This document shows, in pieces, positions 6,732 through 44,400 of a DNA stretch of 64,000 nucleotides; the first letter of the stretch is position 1, and each line of letters opens with the position of its first letter. The stretch is from assembly GCA_965655095.1 (NCBI GenBank), contig OZ296649.1, positions 44,144,001 through 44,208,000 on the forward strand. Reading direction: 5' to 3'. The DNA is from Haplodiscus bocki (Eukaryota). Below the pieces are notes generated by a model. That model searched no databases. It saw only the letters and a list, made by a program, of their open reading frames with translations, and was not told the origin of the DNA. The position numbers and the translations under genes are program-made.

Positions 6732-8304
6732 CATGTGCTACAGGAGTTTATTGCCTGTTTACATGAAATTCGTACCAAATGAAATAAGACCACTAAACAT
6801 AATTTAGGAAATAGTCTCACTCATTAATTACCAATTTTTTAATTGTGACAACAAAGAATAATTCCTACGATTGTGCTAATAACAGCCGCAAAGGGATTTG
6901 CAATTCTATCAGCATTGAAACCATTACCTTCGGCACCTTAAGATTGGCCATTGCGACCACTCGGCGTTGGTATATGTGCCTTTGCTACGCTCGGAAATTT
7001 TTACTTGCTGCCATTTGCAACAATTTGTTGTCCGTGAAAGCATCCGCTGACTCTTTTGAAATAAAGTTAATGGATAGTACGCTTGTAAAATTCATCCAAT
7101 TAGAAAATTTTGTCTGTCCAAATTTTAGCCTGTTCTTTATTATTATGTTTACTGGTTTTATGTCATTTGGGAGTCCACCGTTCACAAGAAGCGCGATAGC
7201 ACTGTCAAGTTTTGCGACAACAGTTGCTTAAAATTTTCAAAATTTGGAAAAACGTAAGGAAGCATTCTGAAAATATGACCTGACATTTTATAATAAGAAA
7301 TTAGGAACAATGAACAAACTTGGAGTGATTAATAAGTCTGGAAAATGATACTGAAAAAGAAATTGGCAAAAATTTAAGTTTCATTCTCAATACTCAAAAA
7401 TTCAGACACAGTTTTTGTAATAAAAAAGCAAAACAAAATCAAAGAACTTCTGATTGGAATTCAAGAAATTTACTCTACTGGGACTTGAACCCAAACTTTC
7501 TTTGTCACAGAACTTTGGAGATTCTACCCCAAAACGATTAACCGTTGGATCAAAAAGGTGCCTCAAGTTGTAAATAAGACAGGAAATGACTCTGCAGAAT
7601 CACGAGATAAAATTTTAGAAAAGCAAAAACAAACTACTGAACCGAAGATTTTGTTCGATACTAAAGTATAGTCGTAAAATAATAGAAAAAACTGCTGATT
7701 TGTTTCTCAATGACACTTCTGACAAAAGATATTTCAACAATGAAACGATTGTCTTATTAGAAGTGTGGGGTGTTACCAAAAATTTACTTACCGAAAATTA
7801 AGTAGTGAGCGCGATTTCTCAGAAATCAAACTGGTAGCTAGCGGTGTTTCTATATGCTGATAACCTTGATCTAGTGGAAAAAAAGAAAGTCTTGATCTTA
7901 ACGCTAACTCAAATCGCTGTTCTCGCCTAGTTACTTTGATGCTCATTGTGAGCTAATAAGTGTAATTTAGACTTAGAAGCCCCTAGAAACAGTTTTTTTT
8001 GAAAATTTTACGCAGCCTCAAAACTATTAAAAACTTAAACTTCCTTTAATGATCTTGAAAATGGTCTAGCAGGCCTTTTTGCACGCACCTGTTTTTTTGT
8101 ATAGATTCCATGAACATTTTTTATGATCTTGGAAAGTTTCTAAGGTACATGACGCAAGGGTGATTCATTATGTCCGAATCTCTGAATGCAAGTGTTTGGA
8201 AACCGTAATATTTTTTACTAACCTACTATATGAGATCCTGACCAACCAAGTGAAATATCAATTTATTGAAATTAGTCCATGCCCAGCTTTGCATTGTGTT
8301 CCAG

Positions 8305-8493
8305 TTTGTGTCTCACCCCCATTGTCAACAACTGCTGACGTCGATATGGTATGATCATGGTCTGCCGGGATGGAGGACGTGGAGATTCGCCATCAAGTTC
8401 CTAGTTGTGTTCAGCATCGTCATACTGCTGCCGATTCACGCTCTAATCTACTACTTCGCCCCAGACTCCAAGTATGGTCGTATCCTCAGACAG
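8305..8493 (+). CDS. TRPC exon (pre-S1 region)
   Basis: ccag|TTTGTG ... AGACAG|gtac; 189 nt; [24 protein letters not shown]...GRILRQ. Confidence 0.93.
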
Positions 8494-20400: not shown

Positions 20401-23400
20401 ATGTGAGAAAACATATGCGGAGTTTTGCTTAAACTTGCGGTGAAACATCGCTGAAGTCGCCAAAATGTCAGAAACAGCTCAACTTCTTGCAAAATTTTTA
20501 TCTCAGAAAATAGAAGGGATAATTTTGAAAAAAAAGAACAGTGTAAACTCATTCAAACAAGTCGTCGACTGGAGCAATAATCAGTTGGGAGATGTTACCA
20601 TTCAATTACATTTGAAGCCCCTTGAAAATTTCATAATTCTGCCAAAAAACTACTTGAATGCTCGACACCTCGGTAGGTACAGTCAAATTTCCGTCAATTT
20701 TCCGCGAGATTTTTCTCCAGTTATATTTATCGCCAAGGCTTGTAGAAATCCGAGATCTTGGTTAGGAATTTGATTTTTTCTCTACTTTGCGATTTTTATA
20801 TTTTCAAAAATATTCATTCAACTTCACACTTCATGGCCAATTTGTGCTTTTTTATCTCAATTGCTGACAATAATATATGACGTGCTCTAATTGGCAGCTG
20901 TTACAGTAGTGATTTCAATTAGAGTGAATTCCTGACGAAACTTTCAACATTTTTCTGAACTTTTTTGGTTTTGAGTTTGTGCGGTTCAAAAATTGCTAAG
21001 TTCATGTTAATCACCATCACCACTGTGTATACATACAGCCAATAGAGATTAAGAAAAATAGAATTTATTTCCAAGATGAGTAAAATTGATTAATTCTTCG
21101 TGCAACATATTGCTCTTGTGAATAAATTCTGTCTACATATTCATTGTTTATTGCATTGATTTCCGAATGTGGATCGCCCATAATTAAAGCAAGTGACCGG
21201 CCCGAAACATACGGGGTAGTCAAAAACATTTTCGAAACATTAAACTGCAAAAAATTTCATCAAAAAGGCGGTAAAATGTTTGGTACTTCCTGCTTGAAGG
21301 GTGATTTTAATTTCAGGACCTGTGCAATATATCATGTGCGCGTGAGTAACTTCAACTTCAGAAATGGACCAGTTGATATCGAGCGTCGCTTCTGGCCTTC
21401 AGATGACCCCACACTAGTTTCAGAGAGCATCTTTGCAGTTGCAATCGTGTTCAGTTTCTTCCGCATCATCTACTTGTTTCAGGTCAGTGCTCAAAACCAG
21501 AGCCCTGACGAATCTTAGAAGTTCAGCACTAGGTGTCCCATTGTGCCCCTGTACATCGCTTTCAAAGCCGGCCTAAAATCCACCTTTCTTTAAATTCTCA
21601 TTGGATGCTTGTTTTTGGAAGTTTTAAGATGTTTCATACCAAAAATGCATATATTTCAGCCGTATGTTTTGGTAAGTTTAAGATTAGTTAGACATTGAAC
21701 CAGTGCAGAATGTTTCAACAATTTTCAATTACGTTAATTCACAAGGTTTTTCTGGAAGTATTAAGTGTGCAAGGAACATGCTTTACTATAGAGAATTGAA
21801 ACAATAGTATGTACTTTTGACAAAAACAAAAATTAATTTTTTTTCTGCACCGAGAGGGACAGTTTACCTCCGAACAACACAATGACAATTGATCATGCCC
21901 AGTTTCGAACTAGTGCTCATCGATACTTAATTTCTAGAATTCAGTCAATTTTCAGTCCGTTCCGCCTGAAAATATTGAATTTCGATCGGCTTTCTGTGAC
22001 TTTTGAGAAAAAGCAAAAGCTTAAATTAAATCAGATTAGTTGTTTTTCAAGTTGAAAAACTATTTAGGATGTCAATTATCCAACGAATATGTTCCTTTTT
22101 TTCAATACACAGCCCAACAAAGAACCCATTCTGTCATCGGAAGTGTTTAGCGGTTGCATTGTCCCAATTTTTCGAACTATTTTCGAAAAAATTGGGATTG
22201 TCCCTTCATTACGAGACCACCACTGGAGCATATCGGTTGTCATGCTTTCGACTTCTTGGAAGCTATAATTCGATCAAAATCATGCAGTATGCTTCCATCA
22301 TCATTTTCAGACACGTATTCCATCAGTTTGTCCTGTCATACGCTTTCCTCCTGCAAGATTGTATTCCGTATTTGATTATTTTTTCAACTGTGCCCGCTTG
22401 TGTAGTAGGATCGAAAAGCGATATTTTAATTTTAGGGCTCACAGCTGCTGCCCTTAAAAAATAGGACAGTTGAAACACCAGGCAGCCGGTTTAGACCAGC
22501 AATCAACCAAGTTTTGAAACTAGGCAAACTGGTAGTCGGCCAAATTTTTTCTATTTTTTTTCTGTAATAAATGTCAATACACCACATATGCATAAGATAA
22601 AGCAACGTTTGTTTCTGCACTCATTAGAAGTTTCTTGTTGTCGGAAGAATCTGCCGCTGTCGGGAAAGCAGATACATATTTGGCATTTTCTGACGAAGCA
22701 TCTGAAGGGCCGCGGTGATCTGCATTCACAAATAAGCATCCTTTGGTACATAAGAAACTGGAAGTCCATCGTGTTTCAACGTCCTGTACAATGACCATCT
22801 TCCTGGAAATTTGATATAAATGAGCGTGCTGCAAGGTCTCTAGGTAGAAAAGAAGTTGCAATTCTTCGGGAGTTTTCCTATTGATTGTTTGCATTAGCAT
22901 TTAATTCAAAGGAGTCTTTGACCGCTAGTAGCATTGTACGTGAGCCGCAGTGAATCAAAGCTAATACTACTTTTTTGCCAGAGTTTTCATGTTTGAAACA
23001 TTATCTGTTGAGACGGACTCAATTTTCATGAAATTCATATTCAAGCACTTTGGAGCTTTTTATAATCTCACAGGTTTTCTCCTGATTAAGTCAAGTTTTT
23101 GTCATTGAAACTTATGAAAGCTAAAGTCCTCACTATGTTTTGAAATTTGTGTCCAAAAAAGGCCCACTATAATTTAAAAATATGTTTTCCCGCCTGAGAC
23201 TTCCAATACTCTTAGTGTAAAAACTTACCACAATTTGATACACTCACTGAAATTTGTTTCAGCTTATTATTTTTCGCTACTTTTTTTAATTATGCAAGAA
23301 AAAAATATTCATTCAGTAGGGTGGTTTTTCTTTTTTTGACTGTATTTTTGCCAACTTTTTTCATTTTTAAATAATTTGTGGTTAGGACAAAAAATTTTCA

Positions 23401-26400
23401 AGCAGCAGGTTTGGGTTCGATTCTCTATCATGCCATATAACTTTGTAAATTCACAGACAATTGTCAGAAATTGCAATGGTTCCCATGGCACAATGGGTAG
23501 GACAACAGCGTTCTGAAGCGCTAGGTACTGGTTCGAATTCCAGATTATACATATTTTTTTACTTTATTGGAACGATTTTGCATTTTGAGGATTATTCTTT
23601 TTCTACATCTATCGAAATTAATATTTTCCGCTAACTTTTATTCAGTGATTCATGAATTCAAAGACTGACTTTTGTAGGTACCTTGTTTTTAGTTTATTAT
23701 TACTATTCTTTTCAAAATAACTACGAATTTTCTAACTTTTTCCCATTTGTTTCCCCTGCAAATTTTTCTAGAGCATCCTAGGCAGTTTATGTAAGCACAT
23801 GGAAGTACTTGCAAACACCAAAAGATCCTTTAACGAAAATTTTCGGTACTGTGAGGTTGAGACACAAAACCAACAGCGAAAAATCATGATATGCATGAAG
23901 TTTTTCTATACCAGAAACATTCAGAAACACAGAAGGGTTCCCCAATCAAATTCTTTTGTATGGCCAAACAAAAACAAAAAAATCAGTCGAAAAAGTGAGC
24001 TAACCCCGTTACGCAAACTTCATTGATAACAGAAACTTTCAGAAACACAGACGCTTCCAGACCTACAAAGAGAGCCCCCTACTTAATTTTTGGTATTGTA
24101 ATAATCTGACAAGAAAATTTTTCGACTCTTTTTGGTGATACCCTCATTTGGTTTACCGAAGCCTTCGCACCGATAAAATGAGCAGCGTCAACTTTGACAT
24201 ATTCTCAACTTGTTTTAGTTTCCTTAAAAAAATTTCAGGATGCAAAACACTAGTGAAAGTTTTTTTTCCTCCACAACTTGCGAATGTCATGCAAACTTCG
24301 TTGTGCAGATTTATTAGCCTTTTCTTTATTCCATTCATTCGGTGTTACTGCAAATAGTTAGTGCAAGTTAGGATGTACCAACTCTTAAACAATCTGATTT
24401 AATGTTTCCTGAAACTTTCGTACATTTTAATTCCTTCTCTTAGCTCATTTCCATATCAAAGCAAACACAACCTTAGAGAAAAATGTGGAAATTATCAGCT
24501 ATTTGATGGCACATACCGACAACTAGATAACCGGACTTGCCGCAGACTGTTTTTCGCCTCCATAGGGTCTATTCAACGAGTTTGAACGAAGGGTAATCCA
24601 CAAAATTCACGTTCCTTTTCTATAATTGNNNNNNNNNNNNNNNNNNNNNNNNNNNNNNNNNNNNNNNNNNNNNNNNNNNNNNNNNNNNNNNNNNNNNNNN
24701 NNNNNNNNNNNNNNNNNNNNNNNNNNNNNNNNNNNNNNNNNNNNNNNNNNNNNNNNNNNNNNNNNNNNNNNNNNNNNNNNNNNNNNNNNNNNNNNNNNNN
24801 NNNNNNNNNNNNNNNNNNNNNNNNNNNNATTTTCAACTGTTTTTTTGCCACTTAAGAACAAAATATTTTTTTCAAACAAACATCTCGCAACAGATTTTTT
24901 CATCTTCAGGCACGCATTTTGTTCTTTTTTTACAAGGGCTCTTACAGGGCGATCAAGTGCTAAATTCTTGTTTTTTCTCTAAAATTTAGGGCGGTTCTTA
25001 TACACCGACTATCTTATACGCCGAGCTCGACGATAATCGCCTGTATGTCGACTGGTACGGATCTGTTTCTGATTAAAATTACCTTTTGTATCTGCGGTCT
25101 CGTTTTTATCAAGTTCGTTCTGCCTTGTTTTTTTCTAGCTGGCGGTTTTCGTCTACTTGTAGAAACCATTGTGTAATGAAATATTTGAATCATACGAGTT
25201 ATAATAGTAACAAAGGCCATAATGTTAATAATATAGTATATTGCGGATAATACCGGTAGCTCCTCGCTATTGCTCGTCCCACTGATAATATCCGACAATA
25301 TACCCGCTCGCTCGTTCGCTCTGCTCTCTCACCGGCTTCCCTCCAGTCAGCCTCTCGCTTATATTATTGCTCGGCTACGCCTCGCCTTTTTTACTCTACA
25401 CTAATAAAAAATTCATCATCATTTTTTTCTCTCCACTAATAAAAAAATCATACACATTTTCTTTTTTCCAGCTGTGTAATAAAAAATACATAATCATTTT
25501 TCCTCTCCACAACAACAAAAAAAGTCTGCAAAATTTTAGGTCATTGTATTCCTCCCGAACAAAATCCCGATCAAATGTTCGGGTAAATGTTCGATCAAGT
25601 GAAAATGAAATTGTTCTTTTAAGAAAACTTAAAAGTTTTCTTTGTATTTGATAGATTTTTCTGGTAATATCTTACATTTCTTTCTCCTCGAATATTATAT
25701 TTTTTAGATTTGTCGTTGTTTTTAACATGTCTAGTCTTTTCGAAGTATTCCTTTAGTTTTACTACCATTTATAAGTTAACAAATTATGAATTTTGTTGAT
25801 CGTCATCTTCAGTCAAAATTGGTCTAATAGTTTGTTGTTCGTCTCTAATCAATTTCTCAAATGATAGCCTGTATAATATATTTTCTCTTAAATCATGAAT
25901 ATTTTCAAGAATCTTTTCAATATCATTATTGTTAATTTTTAAAAATATATCATCGATTATAGATAAACTCTCAAGAATTCTAGTCTGTGGAATTGTTTTA
26001 TAAAAACCGTTATAAATACATTTACGTGCTTCATTTAACTCACAAGTAATTCTTATATTTGTATAATCATAGAAGACTGCAGCGTTACAAAAATTTGATA
26101 TATCTTTTATCGTTTCCATTTATAAAAAAAATAGTATTTATACCTAATTATCATAATTTGAATGAAATTTATATGTTCTTAATTTTTTAAACGAGTCTTT
26201 TTCACAATTTGAAACATGATAATCAAACAGATTAACGAAATTTTCATTTGTTTCCATTAATTCAAACTTTTTAATGTTTTCTCTTGTAATTAACTTGAAA
26301 TGTGGATTTAAAAAACAGATGTTTTCCTCACCTATAGCTATACTATATGGTACTAAACTATTAGCCATATTTGAGATGTATTTATATATTTTCTCATTAG

Positions 26401-29400
26401 TTAGAATTGAACATACCATAACACCTCCAATTTATAAATACCTGTGTTTATTATTTTCTACACTTATTTTAAGTAAAAATGTATTCCCGTCAAATACTGG
26501 TTTGTTAAAAGCTCCTAAAACTTCCGTCATCATACAAGATTCGCTTTTACCCAAAACTATTTCCAAAGGCTTTACACAATATATATTATTTTTATCATTG
26601 GAGATATCTTCAAATTTTTGTACCTTAATCCATCCATTATTTTCAAAGGTTACTCCATAACATTTAGTATTATGTTCTGTGACATATATTATAGTCATTT
26701 ATATTGAGTAAAAATTACATTAATCTATCTTCTAAATATTTTATTCTATTAATTTTCATTTTTAATTCTGTATCTATATCTACTATTGTAGCACCCATTA
26801 AAATTATCAATTCTTTAAGAATAACATTCTGAATTAGTGTATCATATCCATTTTTTGATTGATATTTACGTGGTAATCTATTATATCTATCTAACATATT
26901 ATTTATTTCAACTCCTACCTTTGGATCTATTCTAATTACATTTATAAAAGCTTCCATTTTAAAAATGATAATTCAATTCAAATAATCTTATCTTAATAAG
27001 TGAATAGTGACAATCAGCAGGCTTTTATTGTGAGGATGGAGAATATAGAGTACATTGGATGTCTGTGATAGTTTATGTATAGAAAGATATTATAAAAATC
27101 ATCTTGAATCACATACTCATACTAATAACATTGGTAAAATAATATTATTTAAATAAATATGAATTACTATTGTGATATTTGTGATAAAACAATTAATCTT
27201 AAATCTAAAAACAAACACTCAAAATCTATTACTCACAACGAATTAGAAAAAACTTTTCATAAATTTCATTTCATAGAAACTCCATAGTGTTTTAACGTTG
27301 ATGATGTATATAAAGATTTTATCAACAATCACAATAAAAATATTCTTTTTATAATGTAAAATGTAATTTTAATTTAGTCTTTGATAATAATTTTTACCTT
27401 GTATCGAATCTGATTTATATACTAACAAAACGATTTGTTATTGGAAAAAAATTTTAATACACACCATTCAAGATTTCATTAACCAAGGATATAAATTTTG
27501 TCTCATCTTTCTAATATGAATTTTATAACAATTAATATTAAGATGAATATGACATATGAATATTATATGGATCAACCTATGTCTATGTGTGAGAGAAAGA
27601 TAAATATGAATAATGCTAAAAATCCACAATTGATAAATCCATTAGATCGTAATAAAAAACATCCTCTCATCAGAAAATATTCTCATGTACCATTTAATAA
27701 CAATTAAATTTGGATCTTCTTTGTAAAGTATGCGATCGAATGATAATCGAAAATCAATCTGGACATATGAACTACCTAGCTACCTTACGTAAAACAGATG
27801 ATAAAAGTTTATATAAAGTAAATACTGCTAATAATCTTAATTTGGATGAAGTTAATAAAATATTGAATGATTATATCTTTACTCATTACAAAAATTTTGA
27901 TTTTTATTTTATTAATTGTGAATTTGTAATAGAATTTGATAATAACTTCATTGCAAATATACAAACTAAGATTTTTCATAATACAAAATTTATCAATATA
28001 AATAAATATTTATTATATGATATTGATTGTTCTAAATACAGAAGACACAATTTTTAAAATATCAATCAAATGATAATTAATATAATTTGTGATAGAAGTA
28101 ACATGACATATGAACATTATATTAATCAACCGATGCACATGTTTGAAAGAAAAATAAATATCAATATTGCTAGAAATCCACATTTGATAAATTCTTTAAA
28201 TCGTAATAAAAACCATCCTATTATCAGAAAGTTTTTACATATACCATATAAAATTATTGATAAATTATAAAAATTTTTTACAATTATAATTATAATTATA
28301 TTTATTATACATATATGAAAATTTTTGATTATCCAAATCATTAGTATTTAAATATAAAATAACTTATTCATACAAATATAAAAGTGATTATACAATATAT
28401 TGGAATTGCTTTATAATCGTAAATTATGCTTTAATAAATGTGTATAACAAATGTTACTGATGATTATAACGATACTTTATCATTAAATAATAATTGTACA
28501 AACAATGATAATAATGAAAATAATATTGAGATATTAATAACTTTATTTACAAAAATCCCATCTGGAATGTCACTTATCTGTTTAATATCCTTCATGGTGT
28601 ATACCTTACTGAAGCCTTTATTCAACAAAAAAAACATTTGAATATATAAATGATGGATAAACTTTTATACCCGGTTTATCCAGTTAGATGTATCATAACA
28701 GGAACCAGCGAATGTGGCAAATCAGTACTTCTAACAAATTTAAAATTAAGTATTATTAACGAATATGATAAAAAATACATCTACTCACCCAGTCTTCATC
28801 AAGATTTATATCAAAAAATAATTAAATGTTTATTAATTTTATACCTATTAACATAATCCCAAATATTTTAAAGGAAAAAGATATAGATATAGCATTTGAA
28901 GAGATAGTTTTTAATAAAGATTTTGAGAAATCTGATACCGAAATAAAAACCTATGAATCGATAGAAGATTTAAATTTCCCCAAGAATATGATGATGGGGG
29001 TATTTTTATACTAGATGATTTAAATGAAAAAAAATGAATGATCCTAGAGTACAAGCAATGTTCAAACGATCTAGACATAATAATTTATCGATATTCATAA
29101 TCTCTCCAGACTATTACGAACTACCAAAGAAAACGATAAGAGCTAATGGAAATATCTATCACATGTTTAAACCACACAATTTCTTAGACGGTCGAAAAAT
29201 TTATCAAGACAAAGTTTCCATGGACATGACATTAGCTGAATATAAGTACCTAACTAGTGCTTGTTGGAATAAAAATTAACAACCACTTACTATTGATATG
29301 ACTAAAGATAAGTTCACAGGTCGATATCTATTAGGATTAAATAGTATATTTGTGCGGAACAGTTCTCTATTTTGTATTTATTAATTGAGTATTTATTCTA

Positions 29401-32400
29401 CTGTAACTGAACAAGATTTAATTATTTTACGTAAAGTAGCTGGACAACAGAAAAATCAACGAGCTCTTAAAATTAAAAATAGAATTTTGAAACAAACTCA
29501 TGATATAAAATTAGCGGAAACTTTATCACCTATTATTAAAAAATTAGATGAAGTTAATAAAACTACTCAAGAATCTTTATCACCTATTCCTAAAAATTAG
29601 ATACAATTAATGAGAGTACTAAACAATTAGGTGAAAATAACAAAGAGATAGTCATTACACCAAGTATTCTTTTACAAGACACTTTTAAATCTTTGGCCAA
29701 AGCACCTAGTTCACTACAATTAAACCAAGACAAGGAAGACAATTGGAGCGTTCCTGGGGTACCTTTAATATCTCTCGGTGGTGATAAAATACAAGTAAAA
29801 GAATATCTATGAATTTACTCTCGAAATACATAAAACATTATCACAAACATCGTACACTGGTAAATCTATGAAAAATGAAAATGATCAAAGAACTCTCTAT
29901 AGATTTTTACTAGATATTGTATATAATGGACAAAGTGAAGAAAAAACCAATCAAAAGAAATTTTTTTACAAGACTCTTCAAATTGTCTGGTAATATTAAA
30001 AAAGAAGAACCTGAAAATTTGAAAGGTCAAGGTAATGAGAAATTCAATATACCATCCAACATATTTGATATTTACAACAGACTTGAGGTCTTATTAGGAT
30101 TAAAATTACGTGGTCATACTGATACCATAACAGAAGCTAGTAACTTAATTGATGATTTATATAAAATAGGTGAAATACAAAACAAACGGCAATATCAAAT
30201 GCTCTTTGCAAATTTTCAACCTCATAAATGGAACTTCCAAGTAAATTATTAGAACAAATAGCTTATAATACTAGACCTGAAATAGAAGAACATTCGTTAC
30301 TTATCATGGATGACAGTAAAACCGAAGAGCATTTATCTCAACCATTACAAACAAATAATAAACAATTTAAAATAGCTGTTACTTTTCTAAGTGCTTATAA
30401 TGGAATTTTCAATGTTACAAATAAAAATAATAAGTTTTATTTCAAGAAAACGCTTATTGAAAAACATTTCATATAAATCAGAATACCTATAGGAGCATAT
30501 GAAATAGAATCATTGAACGATAAAATTAAACGGATTAATATTGATGAAAAGTATTATACAGAAGCAAATTATCCGTTTCATATCAGACCCAATTTTAGTA
30601 CTCTAGGTAGTATTATAGAAATAAAACCACAAGGACCGTTAATCAGCTTTGTGTTTAATGATAGTATTGGAAATCTTTTAGGATTTGATGAGACTATATT
30701 AATCGAACAACATATTTTATCAAAAAAATCAGTCGATATTTTATCATTTGATATCATTTTCATACACACAGACATAGCTGAAGGCATGAATTTCAGAAAT
30801 GAGAGAAATGGTATTATTCGCAATTTTACTAAGGATGTTGATCCAGGGTACAAAATCGTCGAAAAATTTCGAGGCGGGATACAATGGTATATGATGGATA
30901 GCAAAGACGTTACTTCAAGTATATGTTTTAAATTGAAGAATGAGAATCGTAATTTAGTTTCATTTAATGGTCAATCAGTTACGTTCAGGTTGTCAATCAA
31001 AGAAATTTGAATTTCAACATAATAAATGCCCAAAACTTTGATAAAATCGAGATTACATTCTAATAGAAACAAACCTAAAATTAAACAAGAATTTAATAAA
31101 ACTAAATCAAGTTTACCTACAAATATTCAATCACTCAAACAGAAACTATTATCGGGTAATATTTTTATTTCTATTAAAGGAGGTTAGAAGATATTCAATT
31201 GTTAGATAAAGAAGCATTTGATAAAAGTACTAGAAAAAGAGATTTTTTAAAAGTATACCACCAACAAGGTGCTAAATTGAATGGAGAAAAAAACAACTAT
31301 CATAAAATAGGTAATGCTCATCTTGAATATGATATAACAGTACAAGATCCCAATGGTGCTTTTGATAATAATAGTCGTATAAGATTGACTAATATTGGAT
31401 TGGCATATGTTTTTGAAGAAGCTGTTTTAACTACCACATTGTGATCAAACCTCGAACATAATAAATTCGTAGGACAGACACCTACCTTAATTCGAGTTTT
31501 AACAAGTAAAGATGGAGATTTATTATCACAATTTGATAATATTAATGAAGGTAATACAGACGATGATTTCGATTCAACTTCTTTAAAAAGATGCTCATTG
31601 ATAATCATAAAATCGGTAGCCACGAAGTTAATAGGGAAAAAATTAAAGCTCAATTACCACTAGAACATAAGTTTGGATTTTGTAAAACTTTTGAAAAAGT
31701 AATAAAAAATCTCGGTTTTCATATAACTTTCAAAACCGCTAATCTCCAAAATAATATTTACACTTCGATAGCTGATGGTACTCGAATTAATGTAACAATT
31801 AACAGTTTTTATCCGTATGTACCATTTCTCATACCTACAACCGAAACGCAACTTATGTTCAAGGAAGCTATTCAAATTGATTACAGAATCTTTTTCGATG
31901 AATGGTATACGGAGAAAAGAATTGCTACAGATCAAATATTTCAAGTTGATATTGGATCTTCTCAAGCAGGTACCTCTCCAAAATATCTAATTTGTGCCCA
32001 TCAACAAGCTAATAGATCAGATCCTCCCAATAAACGAAATAATACCTTAATTTTTGATAATCTTCGTGTAAGAAAATACTTTGTAGAAATAGATGGTCTT
32101 CGTTACCCACGCGATGTGGTTTTAACAAAATATGATTTATATGATTACATAGATCAATACAAAGATGTCAAACTATTTTATAAAGAATATGTTGGAGAAG
32201 AATTAATGAATCCGTTTATAACATACCCTGCTATGAAAAATAAGTACCCTATTCAAGTGATTGACCTCAGATTTCAAATAGATCATATAACACCTTAAAA
32301 GTTGAACTGTTTGAAGAAATAGAGCCGACCCGGCTAATGCTAGATTATTTGTTATAATGATCAGACGAAGAGAGATAGAGATGGTATCGGATGCAAATAA

Positions 32401-35400
32401 ATTAATTAAAGTTAAAGTTACATAAACATGAAAAAATTAGATTTTAGAGATTTTATGAAAAAATATAACTTAAAAGATGATACTATGAATGAGTCACAAC
32501 CACAGAAATGTTATAATTATCCTCTATACCCAAGAGATAGTAAAGTTTATTCAGATAAAACATTTGTAAATATAGACGATGGATCTCAAGGTGCTACTCA
32601 TTGGACTTGTTTTATAGTAAAAGATAACAAATCATTCTACTTTGATAGTTTTGGAGGACAGCCAGGTAATTTTATACTAATTCAATTACATAAACCAATA
32701 ATATATCACAATTATAAAATACAAGAAATTAATTCTAAGTTATGTGGCTCATAATGTTTGTAATGTTTCTATTTAATCGAAAGAATGAATTATTATGATG
32801 CTATATTAAAAATGTATTTTATATAAACTAATTACAAACAAATCTTTTCCCGATATCAATATGTCTTTGTATTCATACAAATATAATGATAAATATAATA
32901 ATATTCATTTATGTATAGTTGTAAATACACTATTATGTAAAATCATCAAATTTTTACGAATATAATTATCATTATATTATTCTTCATATATGAATGTGTG
33001 TAATTATACTAATAATGTATTCGGTAACAGAATCATTCCAATAATATATTTTAGATATCAATTTTTTAATTTTTTATACGCCTATTAACGTATTTGAAAA
33101 CTCCTCAAATAAGTCTGAACTTAAAATTGATATTTCTCTATTTGTACAGAAACCGTATCTAAGAACTAATTATATAGAAGCTAACATAGAAGAAAACATT
33201 GACTTAAAAAATCAATACAGAATTAAAAATTTACCAGATCCTATCAGCATACGAGAAACAGCATCAAAAAATTACGCTCATAATATATTTAAAAACGATA
33301 TTGATTTCAATGACGTTAAATTAGAGAATATAAAATTCGTTAAAGTTAACTATCAACCTGCTGTTAATGAACACTTAACTCCAAAAATATTTGTTGATAA
33401 TGCCATGGCGAATCATCATTAGTTAGAAGTATTCAAGATAATGATTCTAATAATTATAACCTAACAATTATAAATAGCATTACTTTGAATAAACAAGCAG
33501 AAAATGATGATGAAGTCATTACTAAAGCATATGTAGATCAATTTCATCAAGAGAATGAACGATCCCGACGAGATTCATGTATTAAGTTTTATGATGAATT
33601 AAATGATTTGGTGAAGAATAATTAAGACAATAATCTCAACGATAACAAATTAACAAATATAAATTCAATAACAATTAATAAAAATCCAACTGATGACAAT
33701 CAAGTCAGTAACAAAAAATATATTGATGATGAATTAGATAAGCACTATTGTGAGATTTAATACAACTTTTCAAACTATCTCAAAGTCTCTGTCGGCAATG
33801 ATATATATAATTTGGCTAAATATAATAAAATAGACATTACTAATATAACGGAAATGAGAAGCCCAAACATTAGTCAATGTCTATTACAGAAATGGATTTT
33901 GAAGTAAGTAGATAAAAATTATAATGCTAAAATTGATACATTTTTATAATCAACGACATCAACTTCACCAACAGCAGAAAATGGAGCTAGTAGCATTCCA
34001 CCAATTGGATGGAGTTTTTTGTACATAGAATCAAGTGGAAATAATCATGGAGCTAATCATATATCGGTTTCTTCGGAAAAAAGTGATATTATGCATATTT
34101 CTAACATAAAATTTTTTTATAATCGCTTTTCAACATCTGATCAAAATCTTCGTGGCATGGGTCGTTTTAGAATTCACTTATTATTATAAGGTAATACTTG
34201 GTCAACGATATATATTATAAATAAAAATAGTCAATATAGCAATGGATCAACAGTGTGGCATTTATTTGATGTTGATATTACACAAGAAAACTATGGTGTT
34301 GAATTTATTTATAATCAACTTCCTAGAGCTCATGCCGATATGTCTTTTTCAAATATAATAATAACTCATTCTGTATAACTGTAAATATCTATTATTTTAA
34401 ATGGATCAAATAAATTATTTTTCAGATTTATTTGAATCAATACCAGATTATAAAAAGATTGTCTTATTATTGTTTTTAATAAAAAATGATGTTAATTTTT
34501 GATAGGAATGTGGATTTCTAAAAAGTGATATTAATTTTCTTTATAAAGAATTTAAAATTACTTTACTTGAACTTAATCAAGAATACCTAGGTCATATTAA
34601 AAATCAAGAAGAATCCATTTTGGAAAAGTTTTTAAATAAGTAAATGGAAGCTTACTTCAATAGAATCTTTGAAGCTATTAGACATTAACGAAGTCTTATT
34701 TTGTTAATAAGCTCAGTGGAACCTGATATATTAAAACAAAGTAAATTTGCGGATGATGGAATAGATATAATTAAAGATATTGCTTTAGAGAAATTACACA
34801 GGCAACGAAGTCTTAAAGAATTAATAGCTCTGGCTTTATTAGAAAAACAATTTTCAGATCAATCAATCAATATCATATAATCACTAATATTCAGATATTA
34901 ACTATCATTATATTTGTATGAATAATTTATCTTTACTCTAAATATTATTGATCAATATAGTAAAATCACAAATACTCATATATGAATTTTTAAAATATTT
35001 ATAACTATAATTGTATAAATACTTATTTTTCTTTTGATAAATGACGACTTATACAAATTTAAATATTGATCCAGAATTATTAAAAATAAAAACAAAGGAT
35101 GATGAAATCCAAGATTTAAAATATAAAACGGAAAAACATGTTCACGAAAATATATTAAAATCTCTTAAAATTGATAATGAATATTATGAAAAGAATAATA
35201 AATCATTAAATAAAAAGAAAAGATTATTAATTATCACCGAATTTATGATTGGATCAGGATCGGCAATAGGGAGTTCAACTATGGGTTTGATTAACCCTGG
35301 GGCGGGCAATATTATATCGAGTAGCACAGCTTTATTAACAAGTATTGCTATCTTAATCACAAATGAGTACATATCAAAATTAAAGATACGATATACTAAG

Positions 35401-38400
35401 TTACGGGAGTGGATAAATGTAATCACACTACTATATGAGAAAACTCTATGGTCTTCATTGGTTAATAAGAAAATTGATGAAAAAGAAGCTGAGGAATTAA
35501 AAAAGAGTTATAATCATTACGTTGATAAAAGAAAAGAAATCATGAAAAACACTAGTTTTAAAGTAGGAGATGTATTTGGTAATATTATAAGTAAAGATAA
35601 TTTTAATCAAGAATAATTAACTAATTTAAATAAATTTTTAGCCAAAATAAAGTGAAAATAAATATAAATATTAAATTTGTTTTTTTTAACCTAGAAAGAA
35701 AACAAATATTGATCTTTGAAACAGTGCTCCACCTGAATATGATTTTTAATAGATAAATGGCAGAAACTTATTGCTTGGGAGGTCGTCATTATAGTAATAC
35801 TAATAATATCACTCAATATGGAAAAACTTGTTAGAATTATCAAAGGTACTTGTAGTATTGGCGGTCGTAATAAATCACAACTTTTTACTAAGTAAATGAC
35901 TAGAGGAGAAGATTTTATTAAAAATGCTAAATGCACTCGCGGCCATAGATCAGCTATGAGTAATTCAGCATGGTGTGATTTGAATGAAAATTGTACTGTT
36001 TTAAATCTTCACGATGTGTGCCATAATCCAAAGTGTAGATGTCAGAAACAGATTACTTTTCCCCCAAAGCAATTTCAACTTGAAGGGGGTTCGATTGAAA
36101 GTAAAGTACAAAAAAATTTTGAAGGGACACAAACTGCTTGGAGTACATTTTTAAAACCGGCAATCAATGTAGCGCCACCGTTTATAGGAATGACTGTTAG
36201 TGCTAAGATTAAAAATCCTAAAGTTGGACAAGCGACAACTAATATTCTAAAGTCATTTTCAGGTGGTAAAATCTTATCAGTCACAGACATGCATGGGCAT
36301 GGGCTTCATTTGAAAAAAATGTAAATCATTTCAAAGATAGTTTTCTGAATAAATCAGTACTTGTATTAAAGATTTATGTGATTACGATTTAATTAAAAAA
36401 TGTTGTCGGAGTAAAAATGTTTTGTTAAAATCTAATTTCCATAAAAGTAAAAATATGAATGACGGACTTAATCCACAATGTAAATTCTGTACAAAAAAAT
36501 ATTATGTAGATAATCAAGATCGATTACTGAACAAACAAAAATTGTATGATAAAAAAATTCGTGACAAAATTAACACTCGTAAAAAGATTTGCTTAAATAA
36601 TAAAAAAAAAACAGACAATAATTTTCGTTGAATTTGTAAAACGAGAAGTAGAATTCGTCAAGCATTACAAGGAAAAACAAAATCTTCTTCCAGAAAAGAT
36701 TTTTTAGGAATAGATATCGAGACTTAAAGAAAATGGAAAGAATTTCAATTCTTACCTGAAATGACATGGGATGACATTGAATCAGATCATGTCAAACCAA
36801 TTTGTATGTTTAATATATCTAATGATGAAAAATTAAAAGAAGCATTCTCCTGGAAAAAAACTCAGCCCTTACTCAAGCATGATCATCACCTCAAGGGAAC
36901 AAACTTCAATTTCCTAGAATATCAATTGCAATTCATTAAAGCTGATCAATTTATCAAATTAAATGCCCAAGAAGGATAATATTAAAACTTTCATTGATGA
37001 GATATACTGTTCTCCACCCAAGAAGAATTATGAAACTAATAAGATAATCTACAATCATATCGATGAAATCGGGAGTATTGATCTCGCTGATATGGTTGAC
37101 TGTAAGACTTCAAATAAAAAAGGATATAGATGTATATTTATAATTTTTGACAATTTCTCTAAATATTTGTGGGCTATATCACTTAAAAACAAATATAGTC
37201 AAACTATCACAAATGAATTTTCAACTATATTAACAACACAAGAACGAAATCCTCTCAAAATAGAATCTGACAGAGGTAGTGAATTTTATAATAGTATTTT
37301 CCAAAATTTTTTAAAAATTAAATATTTAAATCATTTTTTCAAGATTCACAGATAAAGGCCCTTCGATAGTTGAACGTGTTATTAGAACAATGCGTAATCT
37401 ATTAAAAAAGCCAGTATTTTTAGCAGGAAATGCTGATTGGTTAAGTGAACTACCATCTGTTATTAAAAAATATAATAACACCATTCACAGCTCAACGAAA
37501 ATGAAACCAATCGATGCTAGTGAAAAATCAAATGCAAACGAAGTCTATTCCAATCTTCGAGACAAGAGAAGAAAACTTAACCCAAAATATAAATTAGGTC
37601 AACTTGTTCGTACAGCTGATATTGAAAGAGTTTTTAGTAAAAGTGATTCAACGAACTTTAGTTATAACTTATATACAATCACAGAAGTCTACAATATACC
37701 ATCATATAATATTGACTTTTTACCCGAGAGATGTAATGAAATTCTATTACTACCAACAAAACTATCTCTTGAAGAAAACACTCAGGATATGAAGAAACTG
37801 AAATTAATTCAATAAAATCAATTTTAATAAATGGAAATATCTGAGGATGAAGTTATACAAAAATATGGCAAAAGATGCGGGCGTTGTAATTGAAACACTT
37901 TACTACCATATGAATATGAATTTACTTGCTTTTCATGCGGATATAACGTAAACAAATGAAAACATGAACTCTCTAAATTTCAACGAAAAAAAATAAAAAT
38001 TTTATGAATAGATTAAAATACGCTGACAAAAAAGCTTTTGTATTTGTGTAGATGTATATAAAAATTCTGACCGTGATGATTTTGATAGAATATTTGAAGT
38101 TTTATCAGCACTAAAAGATAGAAAGTTAAAAATAAACAATACTTTAATGGAAGTATATATAGATATGTTAAAAAATCCTGATTTCGAACAAAACAAATAT
38201 TCAATAACTTCAACATGTATTTACAAAATTGCTCATCATAGTATTCGATTAATGAAATGGATTTGTTAATATGATAGATCTCATTACGAAAATATAAATT
38301 ATTATCACCTGATGGGTTCTGTTTGTAAATTTTTAAATGAAATACTTTGATGGTAATTATTACGTTGAAGTAAAAGATCATAGATTTAGCAATCATCCAA

Positions 38401-41400
38401 CTGAAAGTTTAATATTACGCAAACGAGATCCTCCAATTTCTCTCAGAACTCAGTATCAAGTACAAATTGAAACTCCGATAAGAAAAAATCAAAAATTTGT
38501 TGAAAATAATGGTGAATTGGAAGTTAAAAATTATCCTAAAAATAAACAACCAATTATTCAAAACCAACAACAAAAATTTAAACTACCAAACTGCCCATCC
38601 TGCAAACAAAATAATCGGTTAGATTTCAATAAAGAATACTATTGTCGTAATTGTGAAAACATAAACAACAAACAGAGACATCAAATTGATAAAAAAGTTC
38701 TTAGACAAGGTAGAGATTTCTCAACTATTTTAAAATATGCTAACAAAAAAAATAAGAGAGATTTGGATGAATATGGTTAATACTACATATATTTCAACAA
38801 AAGATGTGATTGATAAATTACAACAGTTGAAAAGCAAAACAAAATAAAAATTTTATAAAAATATAAAAAACTATTATGATAATATGAATATTAAATTTGA
38901 TGAAGATGCTTTTGCTAAAATTTCTCAAGGTATTAGTAAACTTTTTCATGAAGTTTTATTGTTAATGAAATTTCTACAGACTAAACCACAAGTTAAGAAT
39001 ACAAATATTAATAATTATGAGTTATACTACATTGTTATTAAAAACAGAGATGAAAAAGAAATTGTAGATAACCAATATGAAAATGATTATATTTATTTTA
39101 ATGATTGTTCCTAATCATTATATTGGACGAAAAAATAATAATGAAACGTTAAGGTAGAGAAAAATGAGATCTTGTATAACTCATTTCAATAAATTATTAC
39201 TATATAAATGGAGATGATAATGAATAATGAGAATAAAAAATTATCACGAAATAGAAAACGAAGATTCGATCGTAAAAACAAAATGAATAATGATATAAAA
39301 TTATTACTAAATAAAATTAAATCTGAAACGAAAAAGAAATATAAAAATTTTGAAAAAATTTAACAATTAGAAAATCTTTTAGTTAGAATTAAATACGCAA
39401 ACAAACCTGCTAATATAGAATGTGCGTTAAAAGAGTTAAACAGAAATCAAGTTATTAATAAAAATTTACATGAAAATAAAAATGAATTATTACTAGATTA
39501 TGATGACTCATTTGAATTGGTTGGAAATTTACAAGTAGGTGATCAAATCAGACAAACTCATAGTAGATTTAGAAATAATGCTGATTATGAAGCTTATATT
39601 AATAACATTGATCAAGATTATGATGCGGAAGATGCTATTTTTAATGGTTATATTTAAAAAATCAAAACTTCTCAATTTAATAAAGTAAACAGAAGTCAAT
39701 ATGGTAATCGATGTGATTTTAAACAAGAAATTATTGAATATCGAAGAAACAATTGCTTTATACCCACAAAAGGATATTGTTTTGTTAAATATATTAATTT
39801 CTTAACTGGTGGAGATTACAAACAACAATATTTAGAATTTATCAGAAATGAAAAAAGACGGTCAAATATTCTGACTAAAGCGAGAATTCAACCATTTTGT
39901 AGAGCTAATAATAATAATTTAGGATAATTCGATGGTGAAAGAGTTTTTCCTAGATCGGTTACAGAAAGAAATAATGCTTTGTTTTTATACAACAATCACT
40001 TTTGTTCAAAATGGAAATCTGCAGGTGAAAGTTTTAATCAAGCTATTACAGAATTGAAGGATAATTTTAAAACAGTTGATAATTTTATAACTGAAGAAAT
40101 TGTCAAATCTCACTTTGAATACATATATAAACCAAAGAAAATTGAATCTCATCTGACTAATTTTATTGGATATGACCTTGAAACTCTTAATACAGATAGG
40201 GCAAAACCATATAAAATGACTTTTTGTCGATTAGGTAAAATAAGTGGCAGATATGATCGTGATCCTACAGTGGATGAATTAAACAAAAAAAAAGACGCGA
40301 TTGCATTTGTTGGAGATAATTGCGTTGGGACTGCTTTAGATTTCTGTTTAAAATTAAAAGGAGAAGAGTACAAAGACAAAACAGGTAAAGTTCTTGAATA
40401 TCAACTTCAACTACACGCTCATAATGGATCTGGTTTTGATACTTGGATAGTTTTAAATACTCTTCCTTGTGATAAAAGAATTGTCAATTTAATAAAAAAC
40501 GGAAAACACATTATTGAATTAAAAGTATTAAATGGATATATTGATAAAAATAAAAAACAAATTCCTCAATATCTTCGTTTTACATGTGGTTTGACTCATT
40601 TAAATTATTTGTTGAAAAAATTAGGAAAGACTTTTAAATTACCAAAAGAATTATTGAAAACTGAAATAAATCATGATGAAATTGATGAAAATAATTGGAG
40701 AGAAAAAAAAGATGAATGGTTGCCTTAAGTTAAAAACGATGTTCTCTGTACTGCTTACTCATGCGCTCGATATATTAAATGTATGGAAGAAATAACAGGA
40801 GTTTCGATGAAAGATTGTCTTAGCGCTCCAGGTCTAGGATGGCAATATTTTACTAGCATGCGAGATGAAATTGATCAACCAATATACACTTATAATGACA
40901 AATACTTGAGATGGTTTGTAAGACAATCAATAAAAGGCGGACAAGTTTGTGCTTTTAATTAACATTATAGATCAAAAATTTGTGATGAAGTCCTAAAAAT
41001 ATTATCAGAAAAATTAAATGTAAAAGGAAATGTGTATGATATTAAAGAAGCTTATATGAAATCTAAAAGTCATCATGAAGAAATCATTAAAAAAGTTTAA
41101 GAAAGTAAATTCAGTGATTATCGAGATATAGACGAAGAAGAAATGAACAATTATTTTTATAAAAAATTATGTGAATTACCAATCCATAAAATATTACAAG
41201 AAATAAGTTTAAATGATCTATTATGGGATTTCGATGCTGTTAGTTTATATCCAAGTGCTATGACAGATGAAAAATCAATTTATCCGAGAATAGAAACTGG
41301 TTATGCTTATACTCCAGATATGAATGATGAGCTCGTTGAAAAATTTTATAATCAAACTTCCACACAAGGAAGTGCTATATAAAAATTAAATATTACAATG

Positions 41401-44400
41401 CTAAGAATCTAATTGTTCAACATCTTCCTGTTAAAGAACGAGTAAATAAAATGGAAATTAATCGTATGAGAAATGGTTATATTATTGAAACTTTAACATC
41501 TGTAGATATTCAAGAAATTGTTAAGATTGGAGGTAAAGTAATAGAAATTTATGGAGGTGATATTTATCGTGAAAACTTTAAAGTGTCTCCAATTGAAAAA
41601 CTAATCGATAAATTATTTGAACATCGACAAAAAAATAAGGATGAAAATAACGATGTTATGCAATTATTAGTTAAATTAATTATGAACAATTTATGAGGTG
41701 AACAAATTAGAAAAGATATTGAAGAAAGTTATCAATGTAAATCTGAGATGTGGATGATGACAGAACATGATTTTTAGATTATCAGAAAATCAACTATGGA
41801 AATTATATTGTAAAAATGAAAGATGATGAAGGCTTGCAAGATGAAGTTTAAAAAGTCAACACAATGATATTACACTTGGGTGCTTTCGTATTATCAAACA
41901 GTAACTGAACTATGAATAATTTTGTACACGCGATTGATGGATTTTATACAAACGATGTCTATTATACAGTTACTGACTCATTATACATTGAAAACAAACG
42001 TTGGGATAAATTAGACAAGGCCGGACTAGTTGAAAAGAATAGATTACAAGGTAAGAACGATTATAAAGAAAGAGGTATATGGTATGGTCTTTTCTTAGCT
42101 CCAAAAATAAAATATTGTTTAATTATAAATAAATATGGTGTTATAGATGAGCACAAAACATTCAAAGGATTTACAAATGTGAGTGATAATTTAGATAGAA
42201 AAGAATATTTTAATATGGCCGATGGAGGTAAACTAATAGCAAAAGTACTATTAAGTTGGAAAAAATCATTTAGTCAAGGAGCTGTAATTCCACATAACAT
42301 GAGAAATTGTGTTGATTGTAAGAAAGACATTCTTTGTGGTTACCTGCGATAAATTAGTAAATCAGAGAAAAAAATTCTCAGCTAATCTGAATGAAGTGAA
42401 AAGACAACCTTCTAATGAATTTGGTCATATGCTTCCTAAGTAAATTTGCTAACTTATAAATGGTGGTAACAGTAAAGGAATACTTCGAAAAGACTAGACA
42501 TGTTAAAAACAACGACAAATTTAAAAAAATGTATTCTACGAGGAGAAAGAAATGTAAGATATTACGAAAAAATTCTATCAAATACAAAGAAAACTTATAA
42601 GTTTTCTTAAAAGAACAATTTCATTTTCATTTCATCGAGCTAGTACATTTACCCGAACATTTGATCGGGATTTTGTTCGGGGGGAATACAATGACCTAAA
42701 ATTTTGCAGACTTCTTCTGTTGTTGTGGAGAGGAAAAATGATCATGAATTTTTTATTACACAGCTGGAAAAAATAAAATGTGTATGAATTTTTTATTAGT
42801 GGAGAGAAAAAAATTGATGAAGAAATTTTTATTAGTGTCGAGTAAAAAAGGCGAGGCGTAGCCGAGCAATAATATAAGCGAGAGGCTGACTGGAAGGAAG
42901 CCGGTGAGAGAGCAAAGCGAACGAGCGAGCGGCTATATTGTCGGATATTATCAGTGGGACGAGCAATAGCGAGGAGCTACTGGTATTATCCGCAATATAC
43001 TATATTATTAATGTTTGACATAATGGCTTAATTGTTAAATTTATTTCATGGCGACTATGCCATGATCATATCCTGTTTCATTACAACATGACAAATACTC
43101 CATGATATAGAGATGACCATGTCAGGGTGAGCGTGAAACACTATGTTCATGCCATGGCGTAGTATGATTGTCATGTTTGACTATGGTTGTCAACCCTGGT
43201 ATTCCTTCGTCTAGCTGCACATATTTTAAGTGAAGCAATATGAAGGAATACACAGGTTGGCAACCATGGTCATACATGACAACCATACTATCTCATGTGT
43301 TATTTCGGTATTTGATTTTCAATTTGGTTCTGGTCGGTTTAAGAGTAAAATAAATAATTTTGGTCGCTTTTCGGTATATCGACGGGCACTAGTTTGAACC
43401 CGTTATCTATCTTGCGCCACTCTCTCAAGTGATTGCATTTTCTTCCCCTAAGCACCGCCTTTTTGTTTTTCTCCCGGCAGTATAATCTATTACATTACTA
43501 TTGGCTGAAACAATTCTGTCCTGTCGGGTTTCCAAATGAAGTTGTCTTTTATCTTTTGAATAGCTTTGTTAAACTATACGCAGATGGCTTTGTCGATGTA
43601 GTAAAGCTTCCCGCATCCTCTCAGTTGAACACAGAATGCTGCCGTGAAGAAAAAAGTTTTCAATAGCATCCAGTCTTTACCCAACAAAATTAAAATCCAT
43701 TTGAAGTCTATGCAACTTCTTACTTCTGAAAGGAAAAAATGATTGGCTTACTCACTGAAGCTTTTTTACGAATGAAGAAATATTTTCCAAAAGCCGCGTT
43801 CTTTAGTCGACATTTTTTTCCGTATAAAATCTCACTTCTATGTCAGTCACTATTGTTTCTAGCCAGCACTTTACAATTAAGTAGAAATGCTCGGCTAATA
43901 AAGGCTGTTTTTCACCGTGTGTTCGATGAAAATAAAGAGACAGCACATAACTGAAGAGTAGATCAAATAGAAGCAAGCATACTACTATACAGGTCGTGAA
44001 CGAGAAGGAAACGTCCATATGTACGAAAAAAATTCGGGACTTTGGAACAAAATTTGTTCGTGATACTCACTCAAAAATACCAAAAAAATTTCGGCCAAGG
44101 CATATACCGAAGATATTTGGACTAAGGACTTTCTCAGACAGTATATATCGTACCAAACAGTCTCTGTACTAAATTTTCAAGTTTTCATTAAATTTTTACA
44201 TACATTTCAAAGAATTGTGAGAAATTTTTTGCAAGAAAGATAAATAAGATTATGCCAATTTTTTTGAGGAAAAAGCTACGATATTTCTTTTTAAAAAGGA
44301 TCTCTATGGATGATTTGAGCCTTATGAGCGTCATCGACTTGAATTGCCCGGGTTTTTTTTCTCGTAGGCAATGAATTGATCAAAATTTTAGGCACCGGAA

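Follow-up and report, generated by a model that had tools for sequence, protein, structure and literature searches.

A decayed Polinton in a TRPC intron, and the pairing of polymerase type, genome end and capsid module among its relatives

Introduction

The Maverick/Polinton viruses (PMC4028283; PMC8097293; 10.64898/2026.06.19.733378) are the described systems closest to the element reported here, which shares with them a length of ~17-19 kb, long terminal inverted repeats (TIRs), a 6-bp target site duplication (TSD), a DNA polymerase B that is protein-primed (pPolB, or PolB), an rve integrase, an A32-type packaging ATPase, a double jelly-roll (DJR) major capsid protein (MCP), a putative protease and a candidate minor capsid protein (mCP) encoded next to the MCP. 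Purifying selection on virion genes is also common to both. The element lies in a stretch of 64,000 nucleotides (the window, whose coordinates are used throughout) on contig C2 of a 1.5-Gb genome, G000, inside an intron of a TRPC channel gene. We consider it probable that the element is an integrated Polinton provirus, now decayed, and that its ancestors likely travelled as virus particles and likely exchanged capsid modules and polymerase-plus-end modules by recombination.

A terminal protein (TP)-vOTU-Exo-Palm layout has been given for PolB (PMC11071308), and the PY and PX capsids have been described (PMC4028283). The Polinton groups have been set out together with the fact that Polinton virions have never been observed (10.64898/2026.06.19.733378). 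An “end-module turnover” model holds that TIR and replicase are replaced together; in that source, the matching of polymerase and genome end is a model that lacks a population-scale test (PMC11296320).

Structure of the element

The element occupies positions 25227-43009 (17,783 bp) and is bounded by a perfect 6-bp TSD, AATGTT, at 25221-25226 on the left and 43010-43015 on the right. Its TIRs, at 25227-25785 (559 bp, plus strand) and 42443-43009 (567 bp, minus strand), align with 530 matches, 29 mismatches and 3 gaps (94.8% identity); the left TIR starts 5'-AATAATATAG and carries an (AAT)2 end motif. GC content falls from ~36% in the flanks to 22-29% across the element. In a first set of eight copies the 6-bp TSD was perfect in three and near-perfect in three, and it was perfect in all five further copies. 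Comparison with natural open reading frames (ORFs) of sister copies recovered ~24 genes. A first-pass annotation made from the window had proposed a complete Polinton with these ends, this gene order and a full virion module. The junction alignment bears out the TIRs and the exact TSD, the gene order holds, and the features described below support both the Polinton identity and the virion module; “complete”, on the other hand, is true of the layout only, as nearly all core genes are broken.

Five features place the element in the Polintoviricetes, the first being its long TIRs with a 6-bp TSD. The second is the protein-primed PolB (39208..42446, plus strand), ~1,085 aa long in sister copies, which matches PF03175 with E 8.7e-6 for a window piece and 5e-21 for a sister copy, and also matches PHROG 1907. 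The third is the rve integrase (36963..37815, plus strand; ~285 aa), with a PF00665 match over the cut-off (E 2.4e-9); a natural integrase ORF of 286 aa matched rve alone, and no chromodomain was found. The fourth, the A32-type packaging ATPase (28650..29381, plus strand), is identified as an A32/FtsK packaging ATPase through sister copies, which match Pfam Pox_A32 over the cut-off (E 4e-8 to 4e-11), the window piece giving E 0.016. The fifth is the DJR MCP (31178..32422, plus strand; ~430 aa), a window piece of which matches PF21738 with E 6.7e-7. The fold model of a sister-copy MCP (pLDDT 53) matches the capsid proteins of mavirus (Z 13.2; root-mean-square deviation 4.5 over 289 aligned residues), PBCV-1 (Z 12.6) and Sputnik (Z 11.1), and its best 13 PDB fold matches are all DJR capsids.

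Likely module exchange and the polymerase-associated genome end

Two virion modules, A and C, occur among the copies in this genome, and their MCPs are 25% identical. The window copy combines module A with PolB type I and (AAT)2. Module C has a 416-aa MCP, two mCP-like genes and a gene order that differs from that of module A, so that an explanation in which a type C capsid was swapped into a module-A backbone was rejected. No fibre candidate was found among the module C ORFs. As further observations on this module, it includes a winged helix-turn-helix gene (L032:6592-7023), and its mCP-like genes are tandem paralogues that are 39% identical (L032/L033 8556-10921).

The polymerases are likewise of two kinds. 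Type I, the PF03175-like PolB of the window, has vOTU Cys/His motifs, an exonuclease and a palm, and lacks the EndoVII insert that marks type II. One patch of 55 aa is alignable between the types (E 0.003), and vOTU-type Cys and His motifs are present in both at the level of motifs. All four pairings of module and PolB were found, each with a 6-bp TSD: module A with PolB-I in ten copies (the window copy, eight sisters and a1), A with II in two (a2 and a3), and C with I (c1) and C with II (c2) in one each. Copies c1 and c2 have MCPs that are 92% identical, yet blastp found no match between their PolBs. When the polymerase changes, the rve integrase does not change with it; it goes with the virion module, and the identity of module A integrases is ~70-76% whichever PolB type they accompany. 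Within module A, capsid alleles move from one backbone to another as well. The MCPs of nine module-A copies fall into four types, with nucleotide identities of 57-67% between types and 74-85% within them, compared with 74-82% for PolB, and C6a and C12a, which are PolB sisters (support 1.0), carry different MCP types.

In the copies checked, end motif and polymerase type go together. PolB-I copies end 5'-AATAATATA, the (AAT)2 motif, while PolB-II copies end 5'-AGTAGT, the canonical (AGT)2. When 40 right ends were drawn from the 150 best matches to one query per PolB type, AAT was found at 19 of 20 PolB-I ends and AGT at 19 of 20 PolB-II ends; two ends were uncalled and none was discordant. C5a, a PolB-I copy, starts AGTAAAATAG at one end and has AAT at the other.

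This association could arise without any requirement for a matched origin, if the end motif simply hitch-hikes with a PolB gene that adjoins the right TIR; module exchange would be just as real, and the assessment that follows applies to the polymerase-end step alone. The PolB gene stops 0.5-1.7 kb short of the terminus, the TIRs of a2 and C3a contain the PolB 3' end, and Caenorhabditis elements with pPolB1 and pPolB2 have been described with conserved TIRs (10.1101/2023.08.22.554363). However, where PolB-I elements have TIR interiors that differ in length and sequence, as do the window copy and c1, they share only the outer ~30-100 bp, which suggests a constraint on the tip itself. We therefore regard hitch-hiking as a possible but rather unlikely account of the polymerase-end association.

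Decay and selection

The window copy is a dead, ordinary insertion. An alignment-based count over nine core genes gives 18 indels and 20 stops (~38 breaks) in this copy, and 24-56 breaks in each of eight sister copies. The breaks in the window copy include three frameshifts and one stop in the ATPase, one stop in the mCP, two stops in the protease, two stops, two frameshifts and a short deletion in the MCP, one frameshift in the integrase and ~14 breaks in PolB. Contigs of runs X1, X3 and X4 are identical to 32192-32477, the stretch with MCP breaks, so these breaks are not assembly errors. TIR divergence corresponds to ~2.6% per arm in the window copy. TIR identity is 90-95% in one set of other copies and 97-99% in another, and insertion was therefore spread over a long span. 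The first-pass annotation had proposed a search for intact copies; all 14 full-length copies examined have at least one broken core gene. Among the 150 best PolB-I matches, ~23 occupy open frames that reach at least 1,045 aa, as counted by eye in a list biased towards the best copies.

Evidence of selection came from nine genes in nine copies, for which neutral evolution would give a nonsynonymous to synonymous ratio (N/S) of 2.7-4.0. Private variants, present in one copy, had an N:S of 2220:1316 and included 128 stops, while shared variants had an N:S of 526:1043 and included four stops. This contrast was seen in every gene and was weakest in the MCP (0.87). Shared variants of the virion genes are thus under purifying selection, and this points to elements that spread in particles and decayed once inserted, an argument made previously for fish Mavericks (PMC8097293). 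The same data lend support to the virion-forming lineage that had been proposed on first inspection.

These results also bear on whether the element is today an intracellular self-synthesizing transposon, with virion genes that are now passengers and that selection maintained only during a remote viral past. Such a transposon would account for the very high copy number, for the broken core genes of all 14 full-length copies and for the lack of a free relative in IMG/VR scans, but the shared variants under purifying selection lie in the MCP, mCP, protease, ATPase and fibre candidate, and virion genes are retained in the younger copies, whose TIRs are 97-99% alike. Moreover, among the best 100 MCP matches for module C, again a best-biased list, 82 are stop-free. 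We consider a transposon-only explanation unlikely.

Abundance, host and relatives

The window copy is estimated to be one of several thousand related copies. In 100 systematic 6-kb stretches from 12 large scaffolds, matched to 14 natural copies, 9.2% of the sequence was element-related (95% confidence interval 4.7-14.1). A stricter rule, under which two library copies had to agree, gave 7.8% (3.8-12.2), and a reversed control gave 0. A load of 8-9% corresponds to roughly 7,000 element-equivalents, and MCP sequence in 7 of the 100 stretches corresponds to ~14,000 loci (5,800-29,700). Copies are present on all 12 large scaffolds. Contig depth in the element exceeds that of the flank by a factor of hundreds to thousands, a figure that is not a copy number. 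Polinton-rich invertebrates likewise have loads of several per cent, with 7.8% in a coral (PMC11131425), 4.5% “Maverick” in the acoel Praesagittifera (PMC6451197) and up to 16.2% in bivalves (10.1101/2025.04.19.649669). The load in G000 is therefore high and within the published range, and the idea of a record genome load was rejected. The ~14,000 MCP loci, with their wide interval, compare with 2,802 in the top coral.

The host is likely an acoel. Its mitochondrial code reads AAA as Lys, AGR as Ser and TGA as Trp, and the mitochondrial gene blocks nad3-nad4L-(cytb,nad1)-nad2, nad6-nad4 and cox1-2-3 are common with the acoel Symsagittifera (PMC2973942). Two further observations concern mitochondrial sequence: contig L030 (G000:C6626:1-6300) has three tandem nad5 copies, probably an assembly overlap, and C1991 carries another COX1-like stretch, which contains a stop.

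High copy number could also mean that the copies are helper-dependent, virophage-like elements, activated by a giant virus and kept as an antiviral defence. This has precedents in protists and in entomopoxvirus-associated polinton-like viruses (PLVs) (PMC11296320), and the nearest Atlas cluster of PolB-I has a sole annotated member in Parabasalia, which is a weak pointer in the same direction. No result links the elements to a helper, however, and once inserted the copies decay in a nearly neutral way, an argument against their being kept by host selection. We judge helper dependence to be very unlikely.

Searches for relatives led mainly back to the same genome. The database entry P0005 and a G000 locus show 100% identity, so the database MCP matches apparently come from the same animal, and they were rejected as independent homologues. 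The P0173 cluster (39% identical to P0005) and loci L019-L027 (57-71%) may be relatives from outside this genome. BFVD contained no close named relative of the MCP model (pLDDT 53), the best identity being at most 15%, which is compatible with the undescribed lineage that the first-pass annotation had suggested. Literature searches, which left subscription journals and Repbase uncovered, found no mention of Polintons among the acoel papers listed, where unseen supplements may list such elements, and no mention of acoels among the listed papers on Mavericks or Polintons from 2023 on, while four papers did mention Mavericks alongside acoels and genomes; a search with the same restriction to open journals found nothing on a pVI-type protein of such elements. 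The available part of PMC9911081 contains no mention of Mavericks.

A proposed life cycle and its weak points

By analogy with Polinton and adenovirus biology, the linear genome would be copied by a TP-vOTU-PolB polyprotein, with priming at the terminal triplet repeat followed by a jump-back. Because priming of this type depends on the triplet repeat, each PolB would need its own origin of ~30 bp. The A32 ATPase would package the DNA into a DJR capsid, and the protease would mature the capsid and free an amphipathic helix of a 142-aa protein, which would serve in membrane entry. Insertion, for which the rve integrase would accept either end type, would occur with a 6-bp stagger. Where many copies are co-resident, recombination would have repeated opportunities, and TIR-to-TIR end repair, given that some TIRs include the PolB 3' end, would keep origin and polymerase together. 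The window copy would have decayed after such an insertion, by the ~2.6% per arm given above.

Several points weigh against the interpretation of the window copy as a decayed provirus from a particle-forming, module-exchanging lineage. No particle, transcript or free linear DNA was observed in this analysis of genome sequence. Selection on the virion genes is historical and gives no indication of present infectivity. The private N/S of 1.7 falls short of the neutral range, which means that viral evolution and decay are combined on private branches, and break counts depend on the alignment. Module C is known from two copies only. The 40 right ends are related, probably mostly from module A, and physically linked to PolB, and for these reasons the Fisher P of 6e-11 overstates their independence, and linkage alone may explain the association. 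The mCP, protease, fibre and pVI-like assignments are made without significant database matches, and nearly all database “homologues” appear to be from the same animal.

A bolder proposal, which we offer tentatively and hold to be possible rather than probable, is that the copies represent an undescribed acoel-infecting lineage: a still-active, recombining population of about ten thousand proviruses, with two polymerases that are each locked to an origin, two capsid systems and several deep capsid alleles that freely reassort, and one integrase type that deals with both end motifs. If true, this would be a natural experiment showing that the polymerase specifies the terminal origin, and the animal would be a tractable one for a search for Polinton particles. 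One genome with four module combinations, two end motifs and dated copies in the thousands turns both questions, that of the virion and that of the polymerase and its end, into ones that can be approached by counting.

Other genes of the element

The left end carries three leftward ORFs on the minus strand: L1 (25784..26119; 111 aa), which is open and lies in the variable left region; L2 (26144..26698), ~176-185 aa long in sister copies and split by a stop; and L3 (26715..26957; 80 aa), which is open. In the variable left region of one other copy there is an accessory gene for a RING finger (C3HC4, E 3e-10) at L010:5748-6065. All other genes of the window copy are on the plus strand. Two tandem, paralogous C2H2-type zinc-finger genes of ~185 aa each, both broken (27150..28270; repeat D2; Pfam E 0.01-0.02), and a small hydrophobic ORF of 67 aa (28438..28641) precede the ATPase. 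Between the ATPase and the MCP are a conserved, coiled-coil-rich gene that is broken (29385..30222), the likely mCP (30228..31010; 260 aa) and a conserved ORF of 51 aa (31026..31178). The mCP is assigned from position and motif only: it sits upstream of the MCP, is under purifying selection and has no Pfam or PDB sequence match.

Downstream of the MCP is a small putative cysteine protease of adenain/Ulp1-like type (32428..32823) with an H-D-Q-C pattern; across eight copies, H, D and Q are kept in 8/8 or 7/8 rows and C in 7/8, and the database matches are not significant (adenain E 1.0, SENP8 E 0.35). The fibre candidate (33078..34378; ~440 aa), which has a repeated AxxKxYVD-type motif, contains one frameshift and ~5 stops, and its fold model was unusable (pLDDT 29). 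It is followed by two small conserved ORFs of 80 and ~70 aa, both broken (34401..34860), a ~204-aa protein gene with a hydrophobic hairpin, one stop and a homologue in module C (35041..35652), and a conserved 52-aa ORF that is frameshifted (35757..35892). The intergenic segment at 34867-35027 resembles other intergenic sites in sister copies, after the ATPase and after the MCP, and is absent from many aligned contigs; it is perhaps a mobile terminator or promoter unit.

The 142-aa ORF (35896..36324) is open and encodes a head rich in Cys, cleavage motifs of the adenain type, which lie at residues 62 and 132, and an amphipathic helix that follows residue 62. The cleavage consensus of adenain is M/L/I-x-G-G-x or M/L/I-x-G-x-G. 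Each of eight copies of the ORF has 1-3 such motifs, compared with 0.12 per 142 aa elsewhere, and both forms are used among copies at residue 62. The helix moment is 0.6 in sister copies and 0.41 in the window copy. The product is predicted to be a pVI-like, membrane-lytic core protein. PDB sequence searches with the mCP, this ORF and PolB-I gave no significant match.

A stand-alone zinc-ribbon and HNH/EndoVII nuclease gene, broken (36380..36979), precedes the integrase and corresponds to PHROG 1035 (E 1e-10 and 3e-8 in sister copies), and two related zinc-ribbon genes, also broken (37831..39114), lie between the integrase and PolB. Two copies elsewhere have unusual surroundings. At L013-L014 (G000:C5:31.17-31.19 Mb) the host flanks form inverted repeats of one another with no direct TSD, a pattern that may reflect inverted duplication, end-to-end conversion or mis-assembly. 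In the copy at L015-L018 (G000:C3:93.20-93.24 Mb), ~3.3 kb from the left side recurs near-identically 13.4 kb upstream, and the PolB 3' end lies within the TIR.

The host locus

The host intron spans 21483-46059, is of GT..AG type and is in phase 0. The TRPC exon upstream of it (21362..21482, plus strand) encodes the S4 region, and the one downstream (46060..46279, plus strand) encodes the S4-S5 linker and S5. Farther out are the pre-S1 and S1-S2 exons (8254-8523 and 10118-10345), the S3 exon (~11940-12072), the S6 exon (~47071) and the TRP box exon (50587; TRPC5 E 1e-15). Exons thus flank the element on both sides in the correct order, which agrees with the intronic position given in the first-pass annotation, and the window copy is likely now spliced out together with the intron.

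A mis-joined contaminant or an assembly artefact, which that annotation had named as a possible refutation, is not borne out and appears extremely improbable. A scaffold gap of 200 N (24629-24828) does lie 392 bp to the left of the element, and no examined contig spans the whole stretch, but both junctions and the TSD are gap-free sequence, the TSD is perfect, the TRPC exons are ordered, and copies occur on all 12 large scaffolds. In addition, contigs of X1 and X4, probably from the source sample, cross the TIR edge (22 bases inside, below the 31-base threshold) into the flank without mismatch.

Three further features of the locus were observed. AATAAA occurs on the TRPC sense strand at 3.4 per kb in the element and at 1.1 per kb in the host intron, and premature polyadenylation is possible. 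The TRPC introns contain a 23-bp tandem array along with several small repeats, either dispersed or palindromic (11345-11482, 48300-49600 and 50147/54518). In the right flank (43064-44975), run X2, from another sample, is ~2% off the assembly and represents a divergent haplotype.

Comparison with known systems

Vertebrate Mavericks have eight core genes and a median of eight copies, compared with ~24 genes and thousands of copies here. Their listed end motifs are (AGT)2, (AG)3 and (AC)3A (PMC8097293); the motif of the PolB-II copies is within this list, and the (AAT)2 of the window and other PolB-I copies is not. Adintoviruses of the Alpha and Beta classes (PMC8502044; PMC11071296) likewise have OTU-type Cys/His motifs in PolB, a likeness at motif level, and the Alpha class matches PF03175, as does PolB-I. 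Their capsid and PolB modules reassort, giving AA, BB, AB and BA pairings (PMC8502044). In contrast, the adintovirus (Eupolintoviridae) integrase has a C-terminal chromodomain (PMC11071296), which was not found in the natural integrase ORF here, and an “Adintovirus sp.” entry is only 13% identical to the MCP model.

The Caenorhabditis Polintons with pPolB1 and pPolB2 (10.1101/2023.08.22.554363) also combine two distant pPolBs with one backbone in one genome. The second Caenorhabditis pPolB has an HNH-type insert, a likeness to PolB-II with its EndoVII motif. The Caenorhabditis TIRs, however, are described as conserved, whereas in G000 another PolB comes with another end motif, and there is a second capsid module that takes part. 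Morphogenetic and replication modules reassociate similarly in entomopoxvirus-associated PLVs and polisuviruses (PMC11296320; 10.64898/2026.10.13.758929). In the end-module turnover model the integrase is replaced too, and few genomes are considered; in G000 the rve integrase stays with the virion module, and the thousands of copies make a count possible.

Earlier publications therefore already contain swaps of the polymerase, turnover of end modules and genome loads higher than this one (up to 16%). The Polinton identity, virion module and intronic position given by the first-pass annotation are supported, while the inactivity of the copy, its thousands of relatives and the reassortment of polymerase-plus-end and capsid modules had escaped it. 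Within the literature searched, what is new relative to the described systems is the (AAT)2 motif, its tie to one polymerase in one genome, the two-by-two grid of modules and the likely acoel host, which together add a likely acoel lineage and an end motif to known Polinton diversity and indicate a host that could be examined for particles.

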